From NCBI RefSeq assembly GCF_000743755.1, contig NW_014569443.1, positions 1-32,766 on the forward strand: a DNA stretch of 32,766 bases, read 5' to 3'. Of the stretch, positions 12,689-32,766 are shown one piece after another; the stretch's first letter is position 1, and every line of letters begins with the position of its first letter. Made by a program: the position numbers and the translations under genes. The stretch comes from Blastocystis sp. subtype 4 (Eukaryota). The notes under the pieces were generated by a model. It had not been told where the DNA came from. It saw only the letters and a list, made by a program, of their open reading frames with translations, and made no database searches.

Positions 12689-14289
<1,601 letters not shown>

Positions 14290-14418
14290 AGAAACCAATT
14301 CAACAAGTGGGCTTTGAAAACAAGCGATGAAAAGAATCGGGAAAAATCGGCTTGTTTTAGTCTGCAACAATTCCCGCGGATGTCCTGAGCATCTTCATAA
14401 ATCAGATTGGAATATCCT

Positions 14419-15540
14419 ATGTATCATCTCTCAACAAGAAATGATAAAACTCCTAAGGATATGAGCATGGTATCTGGACATAGCAAAATGTTTAGTCTTC
14501 GTAGTGGTCGTGTAAAGATGGATATTTTTCCTTTATAGCAGATTGCGAAGCCATATTCTTCAAATGAGAGGTTCTGTTATAAGACTGCTTTTCAACAGCA
14601 CAGTCCCCTCACTCGTTACATCGCTCGGTATTATGGTTCGTGTTCTTTGGATGTATGAATGCTTATTACACTTGCTGTGGTAGGATCTTCGCCTTTTGAG
14701 TGATGATCCAACACTTGATATAACTTTTCCAAAAGAACATATAACTGTGAGTGTGGATAATGTGTATCCTGAGTCGTGATCTGTGGTAGTCTGTTTTCAG
14801 TCGTAGGATATCGCAAACAAATCGATTTATTATTATTGAAAACTTGGAAGAGGGATTTAAGTATCCCTGCATGTTAGATATCAAGTTGGGAACGCGAATG
14901 TATTGTAGCATTTCTGCTTCGTCTTTATGTAGGGGATGGAGCTCCCAGAGATAAGATTGAACGTCATGTAGCCACTTGCAAAGCCACTACATCGGGATCC
15001 TTGGGAATGCGTATTTGCGGCATGAGGGTTGTAGTATTCACGATATCTGATCGATAGTTGTATTGTCCACAGACAGGTTCATGGACCTATCAGGAAAAAG
15101 CATGGGGGAAGAGTTTACAAGCTGACGACATGTTGGATGCAGTTGCATTGTTTTTCTTCGATGGTGTTAATCTTCGAATAGATTTGATGGATGAAATCTT
15201 GGATAAGTTGTGTGAGATTCGTGATGCTGTCGAAGCTGTAGATATGGATGTTGAATGGTGATTATAGTGCACATGGCGATTTTGGTCATCGAGTCTACTC
15301 TTTGTATATGAGGGAGGCGGCGAATCCCATGTTGACATTCACCTCATTGATTTTGCAAACTGCAACTTTGCGAATTCATATACAACTCCAGATGAGGTGA
15401 AAATTGATTAAGAGATTCATGTGTAGGGTTACTTGTTGGGGATTAGCAATCTGATAGCAACAATTCGGTTACTACAAAACGGAAAAGTGTCTGTTAAAGA
15501 ACTATTAGTATGTGAGCTGAGAAAACAGCTCTTTGGTTAA
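14419..15540 (+). CDS. Inositol polyphosphate kinase (IPK/IPMK family)
   Basis: VSGH; IENL..GFKYPCMLDIKLGTR (PxxxDxKxG); SSLLFVYE; IDFA; PDEGYLLGISNL; TAA 15538-15540. Confidence 0.93.
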
Positions 15541-15542
15541 TG

Positions 15543-15581
15543 TGTTTGTTAGGAAGCCTGTCTATATAGGCTGAACAAACA
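15543..15581. terminator. Paired TGTTTGTT elements of IPK (+, 15543-15550) and USP39 (-, 15574-15581)
   Basis: Both are exact motifs, each 4 nt after an in-frame T. Confidence 0.85.
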
Positions 15582-15585
15582 ATTG

Positions 15586-17445
15586 ATTCCTGTCTCTTAT
15601 ATATTAGAATACTACTTTCAGATACACTCACAAGTTCTGGTTGTGTCTCTTTCACCAACAATTCCTGAACTTCATACCAGGTATTATCAGCAGCGTTCCG
15701 AAGATGAATACGATAACAACCAGTCTCAATAGGATTCTGGGCCACCTTCCTTGTATCATCACCTCCTTCTTTCAATTCCACATCATGACACAAATTAGCT
15801 ACCAAATCGAACTTTGTACATGTCATTACTGGAAGGAGCATTCCACCTCGTTCCACCATAGCCAGAGCATGCGCACGTAGATCCTCGAAGGAAGCATCCT
15901 TGGCACATTCTTCTCCATTGTGTGTGATGAACGCACGCAGAGGCTTTGAACTCATTTTCATCACGATCTCACGCGTTGCAGCTCGGACTGGAGGGAAGAA
16001 AAAGTCCTTCATCTCGAGGTTTCGAACAGGGAACAGCACAATTGATGTGTCCTTCTCAAAGAAGAACTCATTTTTGGTGAATCGGTTGATATTCATGAGC
16101 AGATAACGTGGTAACGATGTGATTCGATACGTCTTTTCAATATTGTTCCAGATCTCCTAATTCTGAGTCCATTCCCTCAATGTGACTTTGGTTGTTTTAA
16201 CTCCATCAAATTTTCCAAGTAACGAATATAATGGGAGCTGTTGAACCACCAAGTCTCGATTCTTATTTTTGAACAGTGGAATTGGAGGCAGGTCCAGTGA
16301 GAGCATGAGGAAATCTGAGATCTTAGTACTTGTAGTAACCTATATGATAGTGTGACTCTGAATATTACATCATAATCGGTATAATTGGTCTCACTCTTCC
16401 CTGTTTCCATTTCTTCATGAGAACGTTTTTTCGATTCAGCCTACATATTAGACCATCTTATGAACCCAACCAATGTAAACTTCTTCGAAGTTATTTCAAT
16501 ACGACCCTTAAAACACATATCAATCACAGTTGTTTCTAATCTTCATTTTTCTCTTCATTATCTACTGTGTTCCTTATCATGCAATCCAGTATTAAGAGAA
16601 TTGATGAGCCAGCGGAGGAAATCAGCAGCGTCTTTTCTCTCATTAACTGTGTATCGATCCTTGCTACTTCGGATTACTTCATTTACGAACTTCAGTGGAG
16701 TAGGAAACAAAAGACTTACTTCATGAGGCGAGACATGACTTTTAAAACGGTAATGTGACCATAACTTCCTCATGAGAACACCAAAAGCATGAACAAGAGG
16801 ACTCTAAACTGAAATCCATTATGAAATAGTACTTTAGAATACGAATAATTGGATGGAATGAGGAAGAAATCACGAATTGGAGTAACATGAGAAAGTGCCT
16901 CCACAACAACGTTTATGTAATCCGTTTTCCCGATTACATTCATTCCCATAACTCCAGGAAGATACTCGTCTCCTGAAGGAACACGATAAACTCGACTATT
17001 GCTATCGAGTTGCTTGATATCGTCTGTTGTGTATTCAGGATCAAGAGCCATTTTGATATCATTGAGTGAAGGATCAAATACTTCGTAATTGTCAGGAAGA
17101 CAGTAGAATCTACATGTGAGTCAATTCTCTTGCTCTAACTTTTTGGTTTCGACATTTAAGAATACATGATGTCCGTGTTCCAGAGAATGAGTAAATGCAT
17201 GTGTATTCTCACCTCTTCCCTAAAATACGAGATGTAACAAATGCCATACCTGGATATATACTCCACAAACTAGACAAATGTAGACATTCTTGTGTGAGAG
17301 AGAAATGGAGCATTCCTATTTCTGAGAAACAAATGTTACACCAAACTTTTTCCAAATCAAAGTCAAGTACTTTCCGATCCACAGTATCTAGATATGGGCA
17401 TTTTCGTTGTTCTCGTTCTTGAGCGACCCGAAGACGCGGTTGCAT
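15586..17445 (-). CDS. USP39: U4/U6.U5 tri-snRNP protein USP39/Sad1 (inactive deubiquitinase); stop predicted to be created by polyadenylation at T15586
   Basis: CPYLDTVDRKVLDFDLEK, zf-UBP, YLPGVMGMNVIGKTDYINVV (Asp at the catalytic Cys position), FKSHVSPHE, RFTKNEFFFEK, WYEVQEL..SESSILIYKRQE. Confidence 0.95.
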
Positions 17446-17530
17446 TCTTTACATAATGCTCATACGAAAGGACATACGTGGACTATTTGTATAAGAGAAG
17501 TATGAATAAGAGTGGTACAAGAAACAAATG

Positions 17531-19452
17531 AAAAGTGCATGAGCAACACTAGCAGGCGTTCTCGCAGCCATCCAAAACAGCCACCACATTCATGTCGACA
17601 ATTGTCGGATGTCGCACAAAGTGTATATTGAATGACTAAGTGTGGATATATAAAGCTTAAATCACTGACTTCACAGTCATTATCTAAAAAGAAGGCAATC
17701 ACTACGTTTCACCTATCCACAACCAACGTACTTCCATAGAGTTCAATCCACTCAATACGCATTTCTGTTTCCTGTTTGTACTGTTTCCCAATTGATTCTA
17801 CCACAAATCGGTTCCAGGTTGCCACTCCCTCTTCCATGAGTGAAGAAACTGGATTCTCTGCAACAAACGAACTCTGAAGAAGCTGAGAACAACACTTGTA
17901 CTGGAGTCGATGCCACTGACCACAGAATCGAGTGATTACTGCTATGGTTTGGAGAGCATAACGTCGTGTGGCCTATGATCAATCCAAAGAGAAAGATTAA
18001 CATGTCGAGAAGAAGTAAGCGAAGCTTGGAGAAGTGTCTGAATGGAGGATTGGTGTCGAAGAAGGAGAGGAAGCGCTAATACACTCTGCATACACTCACC
18101 AACACACTCACACAACAACTGAAGTAGGATTTCTCGATTGGATGTTTGCAAATCCAGAATAGGGATATTGAAGAGGGCATCAAACACTGAGTGATGTCCA
18201 GTGATTGTATTCAGAGCATCGACAGATACGGTTCGAATAGAAGAAGCGATATAGTCGAAAAGTGGAAAGAATTGATTACATTCCCAGGTGGAACTGACTT
18301 GTGTGATGAAGGAGTAGGAGAGGATGCAGGAGGTGTCAAGGGGAGTATGATGCATATCACAGAAAGAACTCAGTTTGTTGAGAATTCTAGTTTGGAGAAA
18401 GGATCAAAACCTACCTTGAGAGATTACTTGTAACACGATAGGTGTGAAAATCGAGAGACGATGTGTCGATCCACGATGAGAGCGATGAAAGTGAGATGGA
18501 AAAGGACTTCCAAGAAGTATGAAGATGATCAAAACAGACTTCAATGGAGAATGAAGGATGTTGATTTCGGAAGAGGAGCAGGACGAGTAGCTGCGGTAAA
18601 CGATCATATGGATTGTCGCAGGATAGGAGGATGGGAGGTGATAGCGAGAGAGAATGCTGTATAGAAGAGAGTCCCTCCTGCAGGCAGGTTGAAGCAACAG
18701 GCAGGAATATTGAGGAAGAATCACATAGATTAATAGTTGATTTGATGGGGAAAAGCGAAGTATCAATAGAACTAGAAATCAAATAGTACATCAAAGTCAA
18801 CCCGGAGGAAATGAAAAGAGAGGAATCTGCCAAGGAAAGAGGAAGAATGCCATGAATTACAGGAGTATAGGAAGAAGTAATAAATGGAAAATCCTGATAA
18901 ATCTGAGAGAATGGAGCAATCGTATGCATAATGGGACAAGAGAAGTGGACCTTTCCTAATTGGTGAAGAAGGACGTCGATTTGAACTCTAGCATCAACAC
19001 TACATTCAATAAATACTGTGACTCTCCATAAAGACAGCAAAGATACTGAACAGAAGGATCGAGACCAACATCACAAACAGCTGATCCTAAGTGAGACGAA
19101 TTCGTTGCATCTACTGTTTACAAATAAGTGAATTGAAACTTGCAGGAATACTGATCGATTGCACAATGTGATTCTCTTCATACGCTTTTCCGTCTCTGCA
19201 GTCAATCAACAAGAGTTGAAGATCCTACATGAGAATCCAGAAGAAGTGCTACTTCATTCTCTTTGGTTTCCTGAATCATATTGTAAAGTGCTTCAATGGA
19301 ACATTCCACTGACGAGCACTGTCTGATATCCACCTCTTCTCCGTTGAGCAATTCTGGTTGTTATCAGGAATTTGGATCGTACGTTGTATCTTCTCTGCCG
19401 AAGAAAGCATTTGCTTAAAGTTAATTGGTTGGATATAGTCTTTGGGTTGCAT
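17531..19452 (-). CDS. Hypothetical multi-exon protein, Leu/Ser-rich; product not recognised; probable poly(A)-created stop at T17531
   Basis: Chain of minus-strand ORFs joined by short GT-AG introns, starting MQPKDYIQPINFKQML; last exon ...CRHECGGCFGWLRERLLVLLMHF, then in-frame T 4 nt before TGTTTCTT. Confidence 0.6.
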
Positions 19453-19473
19453 AATAATGGAAAGAAACAAGGC

Positions 19474-20239
19474 AACTCTCTTCGTAATGAAACCATTTGA
19501 AAATGTAGAGCAACTCTTCTTTATTGAGAGGGACTGTTCGATTCAATTCCTCCAAGGAAGCATGAAGAATGTTTCGAAGCGAACCTAGATGAAATTGTAT
19601 CTAAGGATTTGTACCCATTGCGTCCAACAGAATTGCAGCCTTTGTTTCTGTCATTGAAGGATGGATGGCTTTGAGTAATTGAACAACTGTCTGTTCGCTG
19701 ATCTGTTGCTGTGCATTCTAAGGATAACAAGAGAGAGACAGTTTGACTTGTTGACAGAATTGTGTCACCTAGGGATGAATGAACATTAGAATTGACTACT
19801 TCTTCCTTTCGTTCGGATCCAACAAGTTTGCTCACTTGCGTCTATCTTTGAGTTGACTGTTCAGAAATACGAGCATTTCGACAGCTTGAAGTTGATTACT
19901 TGCAAAGAGAAGACAGTTTGAAGTGATTCTTTGTATCGTTTCAATTTCAGGCCATAGGATGGTTGAACTGATGTATAGGATGAAGGCGTTCTTGAATGTT
20001 TTGGATACGTCGTCAATTCGTTTTTGTAAGGCTTCATTGATCGGTTCATTCCCTTTGAGGAACAGGAAGGCGATCGTTTCGTTGCCATTCACAATGACAT
20101 CCTATAATGGGAGTTTTGAACAATGGTATACAGGTAACATCGAATCATCCAATGCGGTTCGAACGGTAAATCCCTTTTGTTGGAGAAGGGAGGAGTAGTG
20201 AAGATTGGAGTTGCGTAGTATTGCAATATTCGGAGTCAT
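19474..20239 (-). CDS. Non-catalytic XPF/ERCC1-fold protein with C-terminal HhH2 (PARTING DANCERS/Spo16- or FAAP24-like); poly(A)-created stop at T19474
   Basis: Spliced model (four introns of 29-31 nt plus one 30-nt intron): ...PDVIVNGNETIAFLFL...QKRIDDVSKTFKNAFILY...QAVEMLTQVSKL...QLLKAIHPSMTETKAAILLDAMGSLRNILHASLEELNRTVPLNKEELLYIFKWFHYEES. Confidence 0.75.
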
Positions 20240-20306
20240 TACAGGGGAGAAGGATGGAGGGAAAAGATTGAATAATTGTTGTACTTCATGGTTAAATATT
20301 CAATTT

Positions 20307-20314
20307 AACAAACA
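20307..20314 (-). terminator. TGTTTGTT poly(A) element of the RhoGEF
   Basis: Exact motif; T20319 is codon position 1. Confidence 0.8.
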
Positions 20315-20318
20315 TAGG

Positions 20319-23300
20319 ATCGATTTGGCAGAAACGATGATCTGCCAGCAATACAGGCTAACTTTTCAAAGAATGCTTCTTTTTCTTCAATACCATTACA
20401 ATATACACTTAGAGAGGAATCCGATGTAAATAGTTCAAAAGAGGCTTCATCCAATTCCCGAACCCGAAGAGTACTGACAGGGAGTTGTGTTAGATAATGG
20501 TACATGCTCTTTGACGAAAACAGGGAATGATAAAGCTGTGCGATTACAATAATATCACTGAGCAACAACACTCTCATCTCCTTTTTCCCTTTTCGATTCC
20601 ACTCACCTTTACAATACAATTCTGTAACAAAACGTCGTCCTTTGATCACCAGATCCTTCTGTGGTGGTTCCAGACTACAGCATACTTCCTGGAGGGTGTT
20701 CATTGTATCAACCTCATTCATCTTGTCATTGATAGCAGTAACAATCTCCACGACTTTTGTGTTTAGAAAATCGATTTCAGGCCTAAACGGATGATTTGGC
20801 TCCATATTGGAGAGAAGTCGTGTGAAGAAGAGAGAGTACTTGCAGATGCGCTACAAATAACAATCATCATTCAGCGGAACTTGAATGGGCTTGATCAAAT
20901 AACTAAACAAATCCAGTCCCTTCGTACGGGGATCTCGAGACAAATAGCTAACATACTCCTCCAAACCTGGTCTTTCTCGATAAAGTGTTTGGAGAAGTGC
21001 AATCGATTTGTAGTATGCATTGCAGTAGTCTGAATACAAATAGAATTGATTACTCGTTTTGAGGAATTCCCGTGATATCAGTTGTGAGAGACGAATTTCG
21101 GTGATATGTTCTTTGATAGCCATATAAAATTCGGTATGAATCTGAAGTGAATGGAGAGGAGAAGATGTACCTGAATGATCCGTTCGACATTGCAAAATAC
21201 TGTTTCAATTTCAGCTTCACTCAGCAGAGGATCTTTCTTGGATAGATTGTTAACGAAGGATGTCTGGAATACATCCTTCAATACGGTCAGATCCTTAATA
21301 TATCCATGTTCTGAAGAGAGAAACTCCCGATAAATAGCTAATCTATTGTTCATCTGGAGAACCATCTCCTACCTCTGCATGGCCATAACATCATTCATAA
21401 CAGCAAATCGCGAATTCTTGGGGTCCATGGCCTTTTCAAGATCATCATCCAATTCAATTCGGTTTGTGGAACTAGTTTTACTTTCATTCTACGTGATAGG
21501 CATTCAGGATCCTTACAGTTTGTCCCACTTTGAGACCTCGCTGAATCATCACAATGGTATTTTCACACGCAATCTTATCGCTACTGCTATCGAATCTATA
21601 TCTCAGACCTACAATTACTGGTTACACTAAGGCATACTCTTCCACTGAAATATTCACCTCTTTCTCCACAGGAACAATAAATATGATGAGTCTAGTAGGT
21701 TCGATCCGACTTTTCTCGAGTGAGAGTTGGGTCATTCGGAATTGAAACAGAATCACATATTGCCCACTGCGCCTCCATAGATTTGGGACAGCAAAGAAAC
21801 AGCAATGATCATAGATAAACAAACGGCCTCGGATTCCCTCAACAGTTCCGATTTCCTCGATTTCTTGACGATATCCAATAAGAACATCATAGCTTCCATA
21901 GAAACGATAAGGACGAGGCCAAAGAAGAGTCAGAGAGAGATTAAGAGCAATGACAGAATCGATAGGAGGAAGAGGAGTTAAAACAGGAAGGCAACAATGG
22001 ACCTAAAGGTGAGTAGTATGGTGGAGAGGAACCTAGACATGAGTGTAGCGCAATAATAGAACCTAGATATGAGTTTAGTAAAGAAGCCGTACCTGATCAT
22101 TGAGGGTGAGAACAAAGCGATATGTCTTGTTGATCAAGGTGAGAGCAGCAGACCCTTTTGGAAGTTTGAGACAGAGATTACCAAAATACATCTCATAGGA
22201 TACAATACGCTAGAGTTGAGAGTACAAATGAGAATGACTTCAAGAGGAAGAAAGAGACACGTTTCAAGGGATAATCCTCGCATTTCAACTCCATTTTGAA
22301 TGTTCTACTGTGAAAGACTCTTCCAAAAACTACTTCCATACAATAACTGAATTCATTGTTCTGTTCCAAATTAGCCAATTCTTTTAATGCAGTTCGAAGA
22401 TTTCCAATATACTTGGAAACTGTTTGAAATGGTTCATGTAGTGAGAGAAAGAGAGAAGCGAGAGCTTCTGCTTCCTCTTCTCTCTGTTTGGCTTTCACTT
22501 GAGTATCCATTCCTTCAAGGAGTTTGTCGCTAAGTTGAATCAGTTCCGGGATATTGGCAAAAATGTTCTGAATAGCATTTGGATCAAACCGTCGTAGTAG
22601 CTGATCACGGTATGTCGTGAGTGTCTGTTTCATATCTCTACAGTACCGTTGTTCCGAGAAGTAGAATTCCTCACAAAGAGAATGACTACATAACACATAT
22701 TTCACAATGATACATGAAACAGGGGTCAAGACTACGGTCCGATCGAATGGAGGGCTGTGAAACTAATAGCTCTGATTTCAGTTGATACGAAGTTGCACTA
22801 TCTCCTCCAAAATGACATTCCAGAGTTGGAGCAGGTGCAGTTCCAGAATAGACTCTCCATGAAGAAGTGGGTGGAAAGGCGTTTGGTGTGGGTTGACCAT
22901 AATAGCACACTTGCATATTTCCAAATATCCAACCAATAGCACCATCAATCCACTCTCGAGAAAGATACATATGCTGATTGTTTTCCCAGACCATCGAGTA
23001 GTTTAGCAAGCCAATGGGATAGTACGTTCCATTCACATCATGGGTACCAGCGTTGGTCACAGTAATGAATGAATAACGTTGAAGAAACTCGTTGTGATAA
23101 GAAAACATGAGCGGATGCGGAAATGGATTCCAATACATCCGGACAGCTTCACGTTTCCGGAGGTCATCGTTTACTTCATCGAAGCAAGCGAGAAAGGTAG
23201 CATTAAGGGTTTGACTAGGTAGACTACAAAATGAAAACAATCTGAGGACTATACGATACAAAGTAATGTACAACAGATTGGAATCGATCGTGGGTGGAGA

Positions 23301-23780
23301 TCATGATGACTGATTGTTTCGAATCCACTTCTTTTGGATCTTCAAGACGGATTGATTGAATTGGAAGTTGATATTTCACATAATACCGTTTACTGTACTT
23401 TCTAGGTCGACAGATGAGAAAGGAGTCTCCGACAATATAGATCATGCAAGGCTTTCGATGCTTCCCTTCTTTATTGGCTTCGGCGGTACTCTCGAAATAC
23501 AGTTTACAGTTTGGGTCTGAAAGAAGGGATGTAATTCCGCCTCCTAAGAAGGAATTGATTTGGCATAGTTTGGCTTCCGGAGTATTCATCCTTGTCAAGT
23601 TGGTTAATAGGGATGGGTGTCTTGGGTGGCGCAAAAAGTGGTTGGCGCAGGGGAATGAGATATGTATGGATAAAGAGGTGATATGTGGTAGAATAGGTGC
23701 AGATACGGGACTGTAGGTTATTTACTGCATTTTGTGATGTCAAGCATTAAGATGATGTACCTTGAACAAGGGATGCCCAT
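20319..23780 (-). CDS. Large RhoGEF: PH-like, small PP..W domain, DH-PH, DH-PH; poly(A)-created stop at T20319
   Basis: Two DH domains (EEFYFSEQRYCRDM..IFANIPELIQLS; REFLSSEHGYIKDL..VFCNVERI..LDLFSYLIKPIQ); C-terminal PH (GRRFVTE..VLLLSDIIVIA); start MGIPCS is tentative. Confidence 0.85.
22003..22092 (-). other. Three abutting 30-nt GT...TAG intron-like units with no intervening exon, inside the RhoGEF
   Basis: GTACGGCTTCTTTACTAAACTCATATCTAG|GTTCTATTATTGCGCTACACTCATGTCTAG|GTTCCTCTCCACCATACTACTCACCTTTAG; each unit ends in an in-frame TAG. Confidence 0.8.
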
Positions 23781-23799
23781 CTCCACAACCACTTCACCG

Positions 23800-23807
23800 A
23801 ACAAACA
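23800..23807 (-). terminator. TGTTTGTT poly(A) element of the RRM gene
   Basis: Exact motif 4 nt after the T of TGA. Confidence 0.8.
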
Positions 23808-23809
23808 AA

Positions 23810-25150
23810 TCAATCTAACATCCCCAGTCCAACCCCAAATTGATACGGATTCTTCTCCTCATAGGCCTATATCACACCAATCAAGTACTTCCTACACGAA
23901 CAATCTGATCAATCACAGTACTATTTCCTTTAACCCTCTCCACAGTCTTCTTTGAAGGAGAGGCTAAGGTCACAAACAACCCTAAGCGAGTAAACCGTTT
24001 CTGCTTCAAGAAGGACAAAACAGCAGCAGCATCTTCAGGTCGAGAAAACGTCACAAATGCCCGTTTCAGCTTCTTCTGCAGAAAATCGTTCATAACGGAA
24101 AAATTGTCGGTTGGGTGAATCGAATCAATCTCCTTCTTCAATCTTTCCACATTCATCGAAGAAGGAATATTTTTGATTAGCAGAACTCGCTTCTCTCTGC
24201 ATGCCGTTTCCTTTTCCTTCTTCTTCTGTTTCTTCTTCTTCTCGTTCTCCTTTTTCCGATCCTGAGCGCTCACAAAGCGGAAAAACAAAAGATGTTCCGG
24301 GTTCTACCTTAAAGAGGCACATCCAATCATACATTATCGAATCTCTCTTCAACGGAATCTTCAATAATCCGCTTCGACACTTTATGATCCACAAAGGAGA
24401 CATATCCACATTGAGTGGTGGACTCTGGTCCCTCCACAGGACCGCGGAGCTTAACCGAATCAACATCACCAAATCGCATGCAGTAATGAAGTAATTCATC
24501 ATCCGACCACGATAATGGGATATTTCGCACAAAGCAATTACGTTGATTCTTTTCCTGATACTCAGAATCGAATACAGAGCACGAAATTACGACACCTTCG
24601 ATGTCCAGACCATCTAGTACTTTTATTACACGATTCAAATCCTGTGTTGATTGCAAGACCACACCGACAGTGCCCGTAAACGATCCATCTGGGCGAAATA
24701 AAGGGTTGAGTGAACTGACAGGTGCTATGTCCCCAACTATACACTCAAGAACGTCTAACGAAATCGGAGGTTCCACTCCTTTAATATACAGCATTCTGGA
24801 TTGTTCAGATAGGAGCTCTTCTTTTGATTTCTTGTATTCAACAGAAACTATACGAGATCCGATAACATTTCCGTTGTACTTTTGAATCACTTGTTTCGCT
24901 ATATATGAATCAATTGAACATGCCAAACCATCTTCACTGTTCGTGAAATCAACAGCGGCAGTGCGTTTGCCATCAATAGACTAGAAATGAAACAAAGAGG
25001 AAGATTAAAACAGTGCTTATCGTAACTCCAATAAGGCTGTGATAGCATTGAAGGAGTTTAACGATGTCAATCTAGATTGACAACAATACTCAATTATACT
25101 TCTTTCGTTAGGCTATCTAGATTCTTGATGATCAGTGTAGGAAGGGACAT
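23810..25150 (-). CDS. Multi-RRM RNA-binding protein (about 4 RRMs)
   Basis: RNP2/RNP1-like motifs LIIKNL, LYIKGV, CFVRNIP..CGYVSF, LLIKNIP..RAFVTF; spliced end GMLD* (TGA 23812-23810). Confidence 0.85.
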
Positions 25151-25226
25151 GTGAGAGGTTCGAAATGAGGAGGAATTTGACAAAGAATTATCGGCATAAT
25201 CGTAGTTGTGGACTCGTCGTTTTGGG

Positions 25227-26068
25227 ATGAGTGATGATGACTCTGTTCCCTACCAACCCGTGCAAATTGACTATATGCGTGATGTGTTTCGACCGAAGCA
25301 GTTTGTGAAAGAAACCAAAGAAGTAAAACCAAAAGAATTGTATCAAAGTGTTTATGATAATTTGAATGTGAAAAGAAGCAGTGACAATCCAATTCGGAAA
25401 GAAGATGATCCGAAGGCACTGGAATTGTACCAACGAATTCAAGAAATCGAAAGGAAACATGAAGCTGATATTCCAAGGTATACATCTCCATCTTTTCCTC
25501 CTTTTGAAATCGATCGTTGTGCCTGTAATGAATGTAGTCCTACAATCCAAGATGATGGGTATTTATTCTGTGAATTGTGTAAAGTGGTTCTTCGGGAAGA
25601 TACATGGGTAGCTCATTTCCAGTCAATCTGTCATCAGCTGAAGCGATCCCAGTCCCATCATACCTATATTAATCCACATATGAAACCTTCCTCTTATGCC
25701 TATCACTTGTTGGAGTCTATGGGTTGGACGGAAGGTGAAGGTTTAGGTCGTGATCATCATGGAAGATTAGAGCCAATTCCAACACGATTGAAAAGGAATC
25801 GTTTGGGAGTAGGAGCCAAGGATGATAGGTAGATTGTGGTTTGTTGTGTTAATTGATAGTCCTCTCCAAGTTACTCATTCCTTTGAAGAAGATCCTAAGG
25901 TAGCAAAGGAGCGAGAGCGTTTATTGAAGGTGAGTGTATGCACCTGGAATGATGGCTAGAAGTATGGAGCGAAGCGACTAAGGAGGATCGTGAAACGTTA
26001 CTTTGCTAAGAAACGTGAGAAGGAGTTGAAAGAGCGTGAGATATGGTTAAGGGAAGAATTTCGCATAT
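25227..26068 (+). CDS. G-patch protein with C2H2/matrin-like zinc finger (GPANK1-like C-terminal module); poly(A)-created stop at T26068
   Basis: FCELCK...HFQSICH; YHLLESMGWTEGEGLGRDHHGRLEPIPTRLKRNRLGVG; last exon ...EREIWLREEFRI, then T + GGAT + TGTTTGTT. Confidence 0.88.
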
Positions 26069-26072
26069 GGAT

Positions 26073-26080
26073 TGTTTGTT
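26073..26080 (+). terminator. TGTTTGTT poly(A) element of the G-patch gene
   Basis: Exact motif; T26068 is codon position 1. Confidence 0.8.
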
Positions 26081-26215
26081 GAGAATTGCTTGTGGAAGAG
26101 ATAATGTAGTTGTTGGACGTTTGGGAGTAAGTTGAATGATAGGACTAACAAGTGTGATTATGTGGACGTTCTAGTAACATACAAATATGATAGTGTCACT
26201 GCTCATCAACACATA

Positions 26216-27207
26216 CTATAAACACAATGCAGTAATCAGAACAACTAAAACTGCAACGGCTACAGATAATGAAACGAAACGACGCTTTGGAGGGACTGAC
26301 TCACTCTGGAAAGATTCAGGATCAATCCCAGGAAGAGGTCCAAAAAATTCGTGACCATCCGATTCTGTACTCTCCAAATACTCATAGGCCTCCTTCCATT
26401 TCGCATTGACAAACTCAAACCACTCTTCCTTGGTTGCAAACTTGGTTGGATCCATCACCTCCGAGACAAATATCGTAACCAGAGAATTCTTATTAATGGT
26501 AAGGTTAACTTCGTCCATCAGTTTCTCCTTTCCATTACTCATAACAATCTGACAGGGAGTGTGCAGATTATAGGCAACTTCCATTACACCCGTCTTTAAC
26601 GATAAAGTACCTTCTCCCTTATATCGATGTCCTTCAGGATACACGATTACACCGAAATTGTCTCTACAGAATAGTTCAAATGCAAAAATAAAAACCTCAC
26701 AGCCCAATTCTTCTTGAAAAACGAAGTGAACCAATCTCGACTAATCCCACGGTGACGTTTAAAAAACCAAATGAACTGATTTAGGTAGCCGCAAAGACAA
26801 GCAGTAGGAAATGCAAATATTACAGCCATTCTAGAAAGATAGCTACTGTTAGGAATCATGTCCCTATAATTCAGTCTAGTCCCATATCTGGCACCCATCC
26901 ACAAAAAAGTCTGCCCAAGAACGATGATTCACAAAATACATTGTTTTTCCACCATTCAACTTATGAGATCCTTTCACACAAGTATATCTGGGATTAAGGT
27001 ATTGTGCAAGCTACAAAAAAGGAAAAAAAAAAGAAATGTACGGCATGAACGATGTGGTAGGGAGTTCCCTTTCCAGTAATCATGACATAGAGTGCATATC
27101 TACACTGATTCAGACCAACGTATCGAGTACACAAGACTGTACATGTTCAAACGTATGTACACAATCCCGAGAAGAATAACATTGAAAATTCGCTTAATAG
27201 AGATCAT
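26216..27207 (-). CDS. Phospholipid/glycerol acyltransferase (PlsC/LPAAT family)
   Basis: NHRSWADFF (NHxxxxD), IWFFKR, VYPEGHR, LKTG, C-terminal TM anchor. Confidence 0.9.
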
Positions 27208-27252
27208 TAAAGGGAAATGTGAGCAAAATGTAAATACCGTGGTTATTCACAA

Positions 27253-27260
27253 AACAAACA
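27253..27260 (-). terminator. TGTTTGTT poly(A) element of the SLC35B1-like gene
   Basis: Exact motif; T27265 is codon position 1. Confidence 0.8.
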
Positions 27261-27264
27261 ATCC

Positions 27265-28611
27265 AGTTTCCATGCGATTTCTTTCGGTTTCCATGCACTT
27301 TGTCGAACGAAATCCCGACAAAAACAAGAATAACTCCACACCACTACAAGTGAGTTACGAAACGAAGAATGACCTGATAAGGAGAAATGTAGTTTCCCAT
27401 GAACAAAACCGATAGAAGAATACTAAAAAACTTGCGAGTTGTGGTAATTGTTGATAGAACCAGGGGAGGAAAGTGACGTACTGTGTACAAGATAAAGAGT
27501 TGGCCAACAGAAGAACACAGCCCAAATTGGACTGCAAGCCACAGACACCTTCGATTTGTTAAGAAAAAGGAGACTCCTGGAACTAACTCTTTCAGGAGGA
27601 GAGAAGTGATCAGAGAGACTAGTATTCCATACACATTGAGCATTTGTTGAAGTCGAAGAGGAGACGGTTTGAATCGAGGAACCACTACATCCTGCTGCAT
27701 TCCACAGACACCATCCATACACAAAGAGAGGAAGAGAAGAATCAATCCAAACGTGCTATTGGATGCTGTGCTGTTCTTTTTGGATTTAGAAAAGAGTTGA
27801 AAAACTATGGATTGTCAATGAGACAAAACCAGACCCACAATTCCTGCAGTCATGAGAAATACCGAAATGTACTTTTGAATCGAATAGCGACGAGCTACAT
27901 GTTAAGAGCCAACGAAGAGTCCACTTCCAAAAAGAGTACCAGCAACAAGAACTGGAATCATTTTGCACGATTTAGCTAATACCTGCGTTGGATAATTCAC
28001 ATGTTTGAGCGAATTGTTGGAAAAGATCATGGCAAGGGTATAGCAAATACCATAAGTAGCATAATCTGATAGATGGTCATCTACAAACGACACTTCCTAT
28101 AGAATAAAACAGACAGAGAATGGAAACAGCCGAATCTCGGATCACCCGTTCCAAAATCTCTCCACTAGGTAGCTCAAAGGCCACTCGAGCAGTAGCTCCA
28201 TCAACGGAAATGTCTCGAATAATGCACGTTTCTCTATAATGATAGTAAAAAACCAATTGAACCCCTCTTTTCGATTTCGTAAAGTCACTTTCCGACCCAC
28301 AAGGTCGGCTTTCGGAATTTGAATATCAAATGACTTCTTTCGCTGATCAAAGAAGAAAGAACCTTAATATAAAACTGAATAAAATCGAATCGTACCGATA
28401 GAAGCAATGATGAGGTTAATCGAGCATTGGAGAAGTAAAAGTACGGAGGTATAGGTGAATCGACTACCATCGGGACTAACATAACGATATCTAGGAGATG
28501 AAGAAGAAAGCTAAGGCTGGACATTCTCTCCTGAACAAGTCCATAATTCAAGTAGACAGAATAGATACCGACAATGGATATTAGGAGTCGTTTATAGTAT
28601 TGATAGTCCAT
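27265..28611 (-). CDS. SLC35B1: UAA-family nucleotide-sugar / ER ATP-ADP transporter, SLC35B1/HUT1-like, with an inserted soluble domain; poly(A)-created stop at T27265
   Basis: GIYSVYLNYGLVQE, SLKHVNYPTQVLAKSCKMIPVL, LSLCMDGVCGMQQ, GQLFILYTV..ITTTRKFFSILLS, ends GNRKKSHGN. Confidence 0.9.
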
Positions 28612-28709
28612 CTTGAGATGGATAAGAATGAGTGATTTAAAGTGATATTCGAAACAAAATACTGGTTCCTAGTTGAAACTTGAGTAATAATGGGAAACAG
28701 TTAGTTTTG

Positions 28710-30216
<1,507 letters not shown>

Positions 30217-30218
30217 CC

Positions 30219-30226
30219 TGTTTGTT
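30219..30226 (+). terminator. TGTTTGTT poly(A) element of PFKFB
   Basis: Exact motif 4 nt after the T of TAG. Confidence 0.8.
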
Positions 30227-30392
30227 TAGTGTGAATGAAACTAGCAATCTTGTAAATGAAAAGGAACACGAGTGTTCGTCATTAGGACTTGTCATACACT
30301 GGAGTGATCAGATTCCCAACAAATATAATTGAATTCGATATTATTACAGATAACATTGATTCGATGGTCTTAATGAAGAACAACTTGAAGGA

Positions 30393-32766
30393 TCATTTAT
30401 TACACTGTATGTTAAAAGGATTCTCAACTGAGGTATATGATTTCTTAGTTTGAGGAGAAGCGATACTGCAATGTAAGTCCTGGTCTGGATTTGAAGAGTG
30501 ATGAGACTTTATCTGAATGGTAACAGTAGGAACAATAAGTATAATAATGAGAACAATGGTAATAGAGATCAGAAGAATTGAAAGAGTCGATAGAACCTTC
30601 ACACGAAAGGATAATTGAGTTTGGATCAAACTGATTCTATTAGAAACTTCAATTGTGATATGTGTGTTTTTGAATGTAGTTGAAGGAGTTCCAGATATGA
30701 TTCCAGAAGATGAATTGAGCGACAGACCAATAGGAAGAGATCCTGATGAGATTGAGAACGAGAGTTCATCTCCATCAACATTAGGAGTGATAGAAAATGA
30801 GTTATTTAACGTTAGAGCATAAGAAGTCCGAGGATAAGAGAATGAAGTGATGGGAGTGAGAATGGTGAATGAAAGAGAGAATGATTGATTACTCACTTCA
30901 TTGAATGCTTTGAGAGTGACTGATTGAGATGATACAGATTGAAAAGGAAATCCTGAGATAACTCCATTTGATGAATTGAGTGATAGACCAACAGGAAGAG
31001 ATCCTGATGAGATTGAGAATGAGAGTTCGTCTCCATCAACAGAAGGAGTGGTAGAGAATGGATCATTCTTTGACAGAACATATGAAGACTGAGAATATGA
31101 GAATAAAGAAATAGGAGTGAGAATGGTGAATGAAAGAGAAAATGACTGACTGCTTACCTGATTTGATGCTTTGAGAATGACCAATCGAGCTATAACAATT
31201 TGAGAAGGAATTCCTGAGATGATTCCATTTGATGAATTGAGTGACAGACCAACAGGAAGGGATCCAGATGAGATGGAAAATAATGGGCTATCTCCTTTGA
31301 CAGTGGGAGTGATAGATAATGGAATGTTCTTTGACAGAACATATGAGGATTGAGGATAAGAGAATGAAGATATACATTGAAGAATGGTGAATGAAAGAGT
31401 GACAGATTGACTACTCACTTGATTTGATGATTCAATTGTAACTGAACGAGATGATACGGACTTAGAAGGAGTTCCAGATACGAATCCTGTTGTCAGATTA
31501 AGTGATAGGCCAATGGGAAGAGATCCTGAAGTAATGGAGAATGACAAATCATCTCCATTTACTGTAGGAGTTATTGCTACGGGTTTATCTCTAGATAGAG
31601 TATATTGTGATTGAGGATAGAAGAATGAAGTAATGGGAGTAAGAATAGTAAATGATAGAACCACATTTTTATAACTCACTTGATTCAATGCTTTGATTGC
31701 AACTGACTGAGATGATGTGAATTGAGAAGGTGCTCCAGATATGATTCCAGTTGAAGAATTTAGAGACATATTCATAGGAAGAGATCCATATGAGATAGAG
31801 AATGAGAGTTGATCTCCATTAACAGTGGGAGAGATAGAAAATTGATTGTTCTTTGATAAAACATATGAGGATTGAGGATAAGAGAATGAATAGATAGGAG
31901 TGAGAATGGTGATTATTAGTGAGATAGATCGATTACTCACTTGATTTGATGCTTTGATCTTGACAGATTGAGATAATACTGATTGAGAAGGAATGCCAGA
32001 GATTGTTCCATTAGATGAATTGAGAGATAGTCCAGTAGGAAGAGATCCTGATATGATAGAGAATGAGAGTTGATCTCCATTAACAGTGGGAGAGATAGAG
32101 AATGATTCATTCTTAGATAGAACATACGAAGACTGAGAATAAGAGAATGAAGAGATAGGAGTGAGAACAGTGAATGAAAGAGGGAATGATCGATTACTCA
32201 CTTCATTGAATGCTTTGATGGTAACAGATTGAGATGATATGACAGATTGAGAAGGAGTTCCTGAAATGATTCCAGAAGATGAATTGAGAGATAGACCACT
32301 AGGAAGAGATCCAGATACGACAGAGAATGAAGGCTCATATCCACTGACAGAAGGAGAAACAGAAAATGATTCATTCTTTGATAGAGTATATGAAGACTCA
32401 GGATAAGTAAAAGAAAGGATAGGAGTGATAATTGTGAATGTGAGTGTAACAGATTGATCACTCACTTGATTGGATGCTTTGATAGTGACTAATTGAGATA
32501 TGATGAATTGAGAAGGAGTTCCATCTATTACTCCAGTTGATGGATTTAGAGATAGACCAATAGGAAGTGATCCTGATGTGATGGAGAATAAAGGCTCAGA
32601 TCCATTGATTGTAGGAGAAATAGAGACTGATTCATCTTTTGCGAGAGCATAGGATGATTGAGGATAAGAGAATGAAGAGATAGGAGTGATAACAGTGAAT
32701 GAAAGAACAACAGTTTCAATTGCTGTTCCACTCACTGCTTCGATTGTGACTGATTGAGAAGAGAGT
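30393..32766 (-). CDS. Surface protein with tandem putative-Ig (He_PIG-like) repeats and a C-terminal TM helix; N-terminus lies beyond the window
   Basis: Uninterrupted ORF; repeated FSITSGSLPxGLSLNxSTGxISGTP; Ser/Thr-rich; TM LSILLISITIVLIIILIV; short cytoplasmic tail. Confidence 0.88.
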   Translation of the reverse strand, partial: LSSQSVTIEAVSGTAIETVVLSFTVITPISSFSYPQSSYALAKDESVSISPTINGSEPLFSITSGSLPIGLSLNPSTGVIDGTPSQFIISQLVTIKASNQVSDQSVTLTFTIITPILSFTYPESSYTLSKNESFSVSPSVSGYEPSFSVVSGSLPSGLSLNSSSGIISGTPSQSVISSQSVTIKAFNEVSNRSFPLSFTVLTPISSFSYSQSSYVLSKNESFSISPTVNGDQLSFSIISGSLPTGLSLNSSNGTISGIPSQSVLSQSVKIKASNQVSNRSISLIITILTPIYSFSYPQSSYVLSKNNQFSISPTVNGDQLSFSISYGSLPMNMSLNSSTGIISGAPSQFTSSQSVAIKALNQVSYKNVVLSFTILTPITSFFYPQSQYTLSRDKPVAITPTVNGDDLSFSITSGSLPIGLSLNLTTGFVSGTPSKSVSSRSVTIESSNQVSSQSVTLSFTILQCISSFSYPQSSYVLSKNIPLSITPTVKGDSPLFSISSGSLPVGLSLNSSNGIISGIPSQIVIARLVILKASNQVSSQSFSLSFTILTPISLFSYSQSSYVLSKNDPFSTTPSVDGDELSFSISSGSLPVGLSLNSSNGVISGFPFQSVSSQSVTLKAFNEVSNQSFSLSFTILTPITSFSYPRTSYALTLNNSFSITPNVDGDELSFSISSGSLPIGLSLNSSSGIISGTPSTTFKNTHITIEVSNRISLIQTQLSFRVKVLSTLSILLISITIVLIIILIVPTVTIQIKSHHSSNPDQDLHCSIASPQTKKSYTSVENPFNIQCNK
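30600..32687 (-). repeat. Eight tandem coding repeats of about 261 bp (87 aa)
   Basis: Units start TPISSFSYPQSSY-like; DNA-level similarity is visible (recurring gataagagaatgaa, ggaagagatcc, ctcacttgat). Confidence 0.92.

Follow-up and report, generated by a model that had tools for sequence, protein, structure and literature searches.

Three abutting 30-nt intron units in a RhoGEF gene of Blastocystis sp. subtype 4: likely tandem duplication and probable stepwise removal

Splicing at zero-length exons in other organisms

Recursive splicing at zero-length exons, or ratchet points, has been described for long introns of Drosophila and of vertebrates (PMC5126111, PMC2773006, PMC6110456, PMC10156609). 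At these ratchet points a 3' splice site adjoins a 5' splice site (AG/GT, the slash marking the junction) and no exon sequence is found in the mRNA, as is also the case for the 90-nt block described here, which is located in a RhoGEF gene of Blastocystis sp. subtype 4 (ST4; contig NW_014569443.1, whose 32,766 nt are in the following referred to as the window). However, the pieces in flies and vertebrates are mostly those of long introns, whereas the pieces of the block are full introns of the modal size of 30 nt, amount to 90 nt in total and have intermediates that are predicted only. The initial annotation of this DNA regarded recursive splicing as mainly known from very long animal introns; such cases are known, in humans as well as in flies, but recursive splicing is also found in snoRNA-host introns of yeasts.

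In Schizosaccharomyces pombe a zero-length exon was reported within a 336-nt intron of SPNCRNA.445 (bioRxiv 10.1101/226894), which resembles the block in that a short intron of a unicellular eukaryote carries an internal 3' splice site beside a 5' splice site. SPNCRNA.445 is a non-coding snoRNA host that is conserved across species, and its splicing was shown by spliceosome profiling. The block, in contrast, lies in a protein-coding gene, consists of three units, has no snoRNA match in Rfam and is apparently lineage-restricted. The snoRNA polycistrons of Candida and Debaryomyces, for which recursive and nested splicing have been described (PMC5033589), likewise contain introns in direct succession, with exons of zero size between them, that are removed in turn. 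Those introns each carry a snoRNA, however, whereas the units of the block comprise 30 nt without any detected RNA and are situated inside coding sequence. An Rfam search of positions 21800-22300 gave no match near threshold. An assignment to juxtaposed introns of snoRNA hosts or to structured RNAs was rejected due to the lack of a stable fold and the unit size of just 30 nt.

The spliceosomal twin introns (stwintrons) of fungi (PMC7138796) are, similar to the block, complex intervening sequences of U2-type units, for which intron definition and removal of the smallest unit first are assumed. Stwintrons are nested: the donor, branch point or acceptor of one unit is split by another unit, so that the order of removal is fixed, while the units of the block lie side by side. 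The block was therefore not classified as a stwintron, since none of its adjoining units lacks a complete set of GT, branch triplet and TAG. In anatomy and outcome it agrees with a recursive intron, with two internal TAG/GT junctions at 30 and 60, internal acceptors of normal strength, a branch point adenine assigned by position, and the absence of the whole block from the mature mRNA. A literature search covering few subscription journals found no report of recursive splicing or stacked mini-introns in Blastocystis, and none of recursive splicing arising from tandem intron duplication at AGGT in unicellular organisms.

Structure of the block and its host gene

Read along the minus strand (22092..22003) the block consists of three abutting units of exactly 30 nt apiece (Table 1). 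As described in the initial annotation, all three start with GT, end with TAG and contain ACTCA at the same offset, namely unit positions 19-23, which places an A at -8 in each of them. The terminal TAG is in frame in every unit, again as annotated, and unit 1 has an additional in-frame TAA. Within the block, AG dinucleotides are confined to the unit ends (30, 60 and 90). Since the block is flanked by CAG upstream and by GT downstream, AG/GT occurs four times at a spacing of 30 nt.

Table 1. Location of the intron units and of the neighbouring features of the RhoGEF gene (positions in the window).
Feature	Position	Strand	Description
Host gene	20305..23589	-	RhoGEF of 976 aa up to the genomic stop; weakly PH-like at the N-terminus, then two DH domains and a PH domain at the C-terminus
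Upstream exon	22093..22209	-	End of first DH (RhoGEF) domain, CAG end; ungapped alignment to orthologue P0011
Intervening block	22003..22092	-	Phase-0, fifth intron of modelled RhoGEF gene, wholly absent from mature RNA
Unit 1	22063..22092	-	30 nt, complete as an intron: GT, TCA at -10..-8 resembling a branch point, TAG
Unit 2	22033..22062	-	30 nt, complete as an intron; probably a copy of unit 1
Unit 3	22003..22032	-	Complete 30-nt intron unit with terminal acceptor
Downstream exon	21626..22002	-	GT start; linker and domain placed as PH partner of first DH

The 90-nt block is a real feature and not a product of chance. In the Blastocystis ST4 sheet of the published intron table (PMC5608401, S11 Data), exactly these 90 nt make up a single entry, intron KNB44308_1. 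The block and its 30-nt flanks are identical in 3/3 metagenome contigs that cover it, one of which could be the source of the window itself (a fourth locus, an unrelated weak match, was set aside), and an assembly error thus seems unlikely. The probability that both internal junctions and the branch-like triplets occur by chance in a given 90-nt intron is ~4e-9 for the exact positions and ~8e-7 if positional slack is allowed. In simulated windows a triple was obtained in 0/60 and 1/60 runs at two thresholds, and a scan of both strands of the window with a splice-site matrix revealed no second triple.

This matrix was built from 23 other introns of the window, which are 28-32 nt long and 8 of which were placed by inference. 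The three units scored 14.3, 11.4 and 8.7, compared to 3.3-13.4 for the 23 ordinary introns (leave-one-out). Unit 1 (donor 5.7 bits, acceptor 8.6 bits) falls at the upper end of what normal introns score, their acceptors ranging from -0.7 to 8.7 bits. Units 2 and 3 have donors of 3.5 and 3.4 bits and acceptors of 8.0 and 5.3 bits, respectively, so that both internal acceptors outscore the terminal one; moreover, the spacing of each from a donor is the modal one. RNA folding of the block did not reveal a structure masking the internal sites (z-score +0.99). A putative fourth unit in the downstream exon was rejected on account of its matrix score of -8.4.

The host gene was modelled with 10 introns, nine of which are 28-31 nt long. 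Its short introns were placed from the gap totals of an RNA contig (86 and 147 nt) and checked by depth arithmetic; these totals allowed for 2 and 3 open-frame solutions, respectively, and the solution was chosen in which all introns are GT..AG and 28-30 nt long. The removal of the 90 nt restores an open frame, as stated in the initial annotation; in the gene model this frame comprises 976 aa and aligns along its length with the 1310-aa orthologue P0011. According to Pfam it contains PF00621 twice (E 5.6e-14 for the first DH domain and pieces at 1.5e-10 and 8.7e-13 for the second) as well as a PH domain after the second DH domain (PF22697, E 1.8e-4, below its curated cut-off), and the succession of DH and PH identifies the protein as a RhoGEF of the Dbl family. 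The downstream exon matched no Pfam family and is regarded as PH-like by its position alone; it has 11 homologues in a HMMER search and is collinear with P0011. Between two anchors spanning the junction there are 53 residues in the host protein and in P0011 alike, without a gap.

Four sequencing runs were compared over positions 12800-32766, and the block was covered by run X1 alone and not by X2-X4. X1 is presumably RNA according to automatic classification, and it skips many GT..AG stretches of ~30 nt, which is consistent with this origin. A 3480-nt contig of X1 spans positions 20376-24238 without a single differing letter; missing from it are precisely the 90 nt of the block and the other introns. 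The 90-nt intron is thereby confirmed by RNA and is made of three complete 30-nt units. The skip and the collinearity with P0011 indicate a single gene and a block that neither conceals a micro-exon nor has lost one, no residues being missing in comparison to P0011; they refute the suggestion of two separate genes meeting at this position. The block does not appear to alter the host protein.

Of the junctions suggested for checking, the removal of 90 nt was found in the contigs, while a skip of 30 or 60 nt was not found among the best-supported X1 joints listed, which derive from assembled contigs in which rare forms get dropped. The mean depth of three bins was 75.3, 67.6 and 75.6, compared to 75.29, 67.59 and 75.68 calculated for the fully spliced contig alone, the second value of each series referring to the bin over the block (21458-22123). 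No contig of a partially spliced or retained form was present over the block in X1, the sole covering run, and neighbouring depth bins showed no retention of other introns either. Given that rare variants are lost on assembly and that the neighbouring introns behave alike, the contigs and their depth are weak evidence; they argue against an abundant partial isoform, yet not against transient intermediates.

The downstream motif TGTTTGTT, which is known from Blastocystis (PMC5608401), was detected on the minus strand at the 3' end of the RhoGEF gene (20307-20314) and of the upstream gene (23800-23807). The stop codon of the RhoGEF gene may arise by polyadenylation a few bases ahead of the genomic TAA, a site beyond the end of the RNA contig (20376). 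The X1 contig at 20376-24238 crosses the motif at 23807 and connects the RhoGEF gene with the end of the gene upstream, which may reflect overlapping transcripts, read-through or an assembly join. Elsewhere in the window, X1 has no cover at 14800-19450 though both sides are covered, and the genes there may be silent, filtered or absent in the strain. Positions 30700-32766 form a diverged tandem-repeat region (~75% self-similarity over >1 kb, many variant contigs), which is probably a repeat-protein gene family.

Origin of the units and frequency of intron chains in Blastocystis

The likely origin of the block is the tandem duplication of one ancestral intron of ~30 nt, as judged from sequence comparison. 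Units 1 and 2 are identical at 19/30 positions, whereas the best of 253 ordinary intron pairs reaches 18; in their 3' part they agree at 14/16 positions, compared to a maximum of 12 in ordinary pairs. Unit 3 shares 15-16/30 positions with the other two, a value in the background range at which a relation is undetectable. Unit positions 3-14 have diverged to background (3, 5 and 4 of 12 identical), while each of the three units has retained its signal positions. The copying of a whole GT..AG intron head to tail would automatically create an AG/GT joint and leave the protein unchanged.

A single ordinary intron of 28-31 nt appears to be present at this position in two other lineages, as deduced from back-translated proteins and not from DNA. 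The read-through ORFs of these lineages fit an intron of 31 nt (P0005, P0015) and of 28 nt (P0008, P0032). All four homologous proteins had been called from unspliced DNA, and the upstream exon was recovered in another frame by back-translation, the score of which was reached by 0/60 shuffles in each of the four. The orthologue comparison proposed in the initial annotation accordingly provided apparent single introns in two lineages, in which the three-unit state thus seems to be absent, and points to an expansion to three units in the ST4 lineage and a lineage-restricted arrangement.

Furthermore, the published intron table (PMC5608401 S11 Data) lists for subtype 7 (ST7) an annotated 60-nt intron (XP_012895470_4) consisting of 30+30 nt. 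The first 16 nt of both halves are identical and the 3' parts have diverged, a canonical branch triplet and TAG being present in both. This twin, which is independent of the block, indicates that whole-intron tandem duplication occurs in Blastocystis.

The modal intron size is reported to be 30 nt in ST1, ST3, ST4 and ST7 (PMC5608401, PMC12129017). In order to survey longer introns the same table was sampled by motif and its rows were split by eye, covering places 1-90 of 96 for CTAGGT, 9-38 of 52 for TGTAGGT, 13/13 for CGTAGGT, 26-55 and 111-140 of 302 for ATAGGT and, as a control, 56-85 of 129 for CTAGGA. The sequence TGAGGCGTAGGT had 0 occurrences in the table file. In ST1, the annotation of which was corrected by RNA, no twin was present among the rows seen for CTAGGT (25/25 ST1 places), CGTAGGT (8/8), ATAGGT (30 places) or TGTAGGT (5 places). 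Among the rows seen for ST4, 7/11 introns of 55-75 nt with an internal TAG/GT split into two parts of 26-37 nt, compared to 0/2 in the control. These splits were not counted as twins, since several have one coding-like half and ST4 was annotated without RNA-seq; several may be mis-drawn exon boundaries. The most twin-like of the ST4 candidates are KNB42741_3 (31+33) and KNB45500_1 (26+33); further candidates are KNB42386_2 (33+30) and KNB45298_6 (29+32, opening a longer annotated intron). In ST7, 1/3 such rows was a clear twin among the rows listed. From these motif-sampled rows, chains look rare in Blastocystis and give no indication of a genome-wide system, although other rows may contain further cases, and the genome-wide enrichment of introns of n x 30 nt that had been considered was not demonstrated.

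Stepwise removal and alternative explanations

We consider it probable that the block is a tandem duplicate of a whole intron that is excised stepwise at zero-length exons. The stepwise removal of the units is itself held to be probable with regard to the site scores, the folding and the intact signals. Tandem duplication and stepwise removal had been posed as alternatives in the initial annotation; the evidence favours both, with duplication as the origin and stepwise removal as the likely mechanism. Starting from a GT, the spliceosome would use whichever branch point and TAG it meets first, at a distance of ~30 nt, just like in the remaining introns of this region, and each excision would join AG to the next GT and thereby expose another normal intron. 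An order from 5' to 3' is plausible as unit 1 has the best sites, but the units are self-contained and could be excised in any order to give the same mRNA. The splicing intermediates would presumably be short-lived. Damage to a unit would result in a longer intron that is spliced poorly, or in an in-frame stop, which may explain the retention of the internal signals. Re-splicing at the final AG/GT after the last step seems unlikely; the exon following the block on the minus strand is devoid of AG for 110 nt (21893-22002), which could protect the junction, and AG gaps of at least 108 nt account for only 8/1914 on this strand.

The removal of a single 90-nt intron in one step, with the internal sites as unused relics of a tandem duplication, appears unlikely. 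It would agree with the 90-nt junction being the only one seen among the contig joints listed, with the public annotation of one intron (although ST4 was annotated without RNA-seq, PMC5608401) and with longer introns annotated in Blastocystis that have no obvious chain structure. Nevertheless, in a one-step reaction the first donor would have to bypass two stronger acceptors at the usual distance, which favours stepwise removal. Moreover, no RNA fold conceals the internal sites, and their signals have remained intact despite the divergence of the 5' cores to background. A regulated switch, as put forward in the initial annotation, would tune the RhoGEF output by partial removal, giving a truncated product with a single DH domain or a target for decay. 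Every modelled partial product indeed stops 5-10 codons from the junction, at 465-469 aa and after the first DH domain. However, no partial contig was found over the region in the sole covering run, the depth fits the fully spliced contig only, and the arrangement is apparently not conserved in the two lineages that seem to have a single intron. Such a switch is thus unsupported and seems highly improbable.

With respect to the origin, three old separate introns could have been merged by the loss of micro-exons, or introns could have been inserted repeatedly at a regenerated AG/GT. Unit 3 is no closer to the others than unrelated introns are, and the flanks of the block do form an AG/GT site, hence repeated insertion is possible for unit 3 in particular. 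On the other hand, lost coding micro-exons are ruled out by the complete alignment to the orthologue, units 1 and 2 look related, and the ST7 twin shows that duplication happens, which makes this origin quite improbable for the block as a whole. As it concerns the origin only, stepwise removal would still be implied.

Stepwise removal of duplicated units might be taken further to a spliceosome with a fixed ruler of ~30 nt in human-associated Blastocystis, in which introns could grow by whole units only and all genuine longer ones would represent chains excised piece by piece. This generalisation is rather doubtful; if it were true, recursive splicing on the smallest scale possible would be exemplified most clearly by the triple and by the twin of ST7. 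For the annotation of genomes with tiny introns, the block suggests that introns of 60 and 90 nt may be chains. The duplication of entire introns would offer a silent route for their multiplication, and the locus is a natural and compact test case for intron definition as well as for spliceosome assembly on adjacent 30-nt units. If the units of the block are removed stepwise, recursive splicing would not be confined to very long introns or to the release of snoRNAs, but would follow when a spliceosome tuned to tiny introns meets a duplicated intron.
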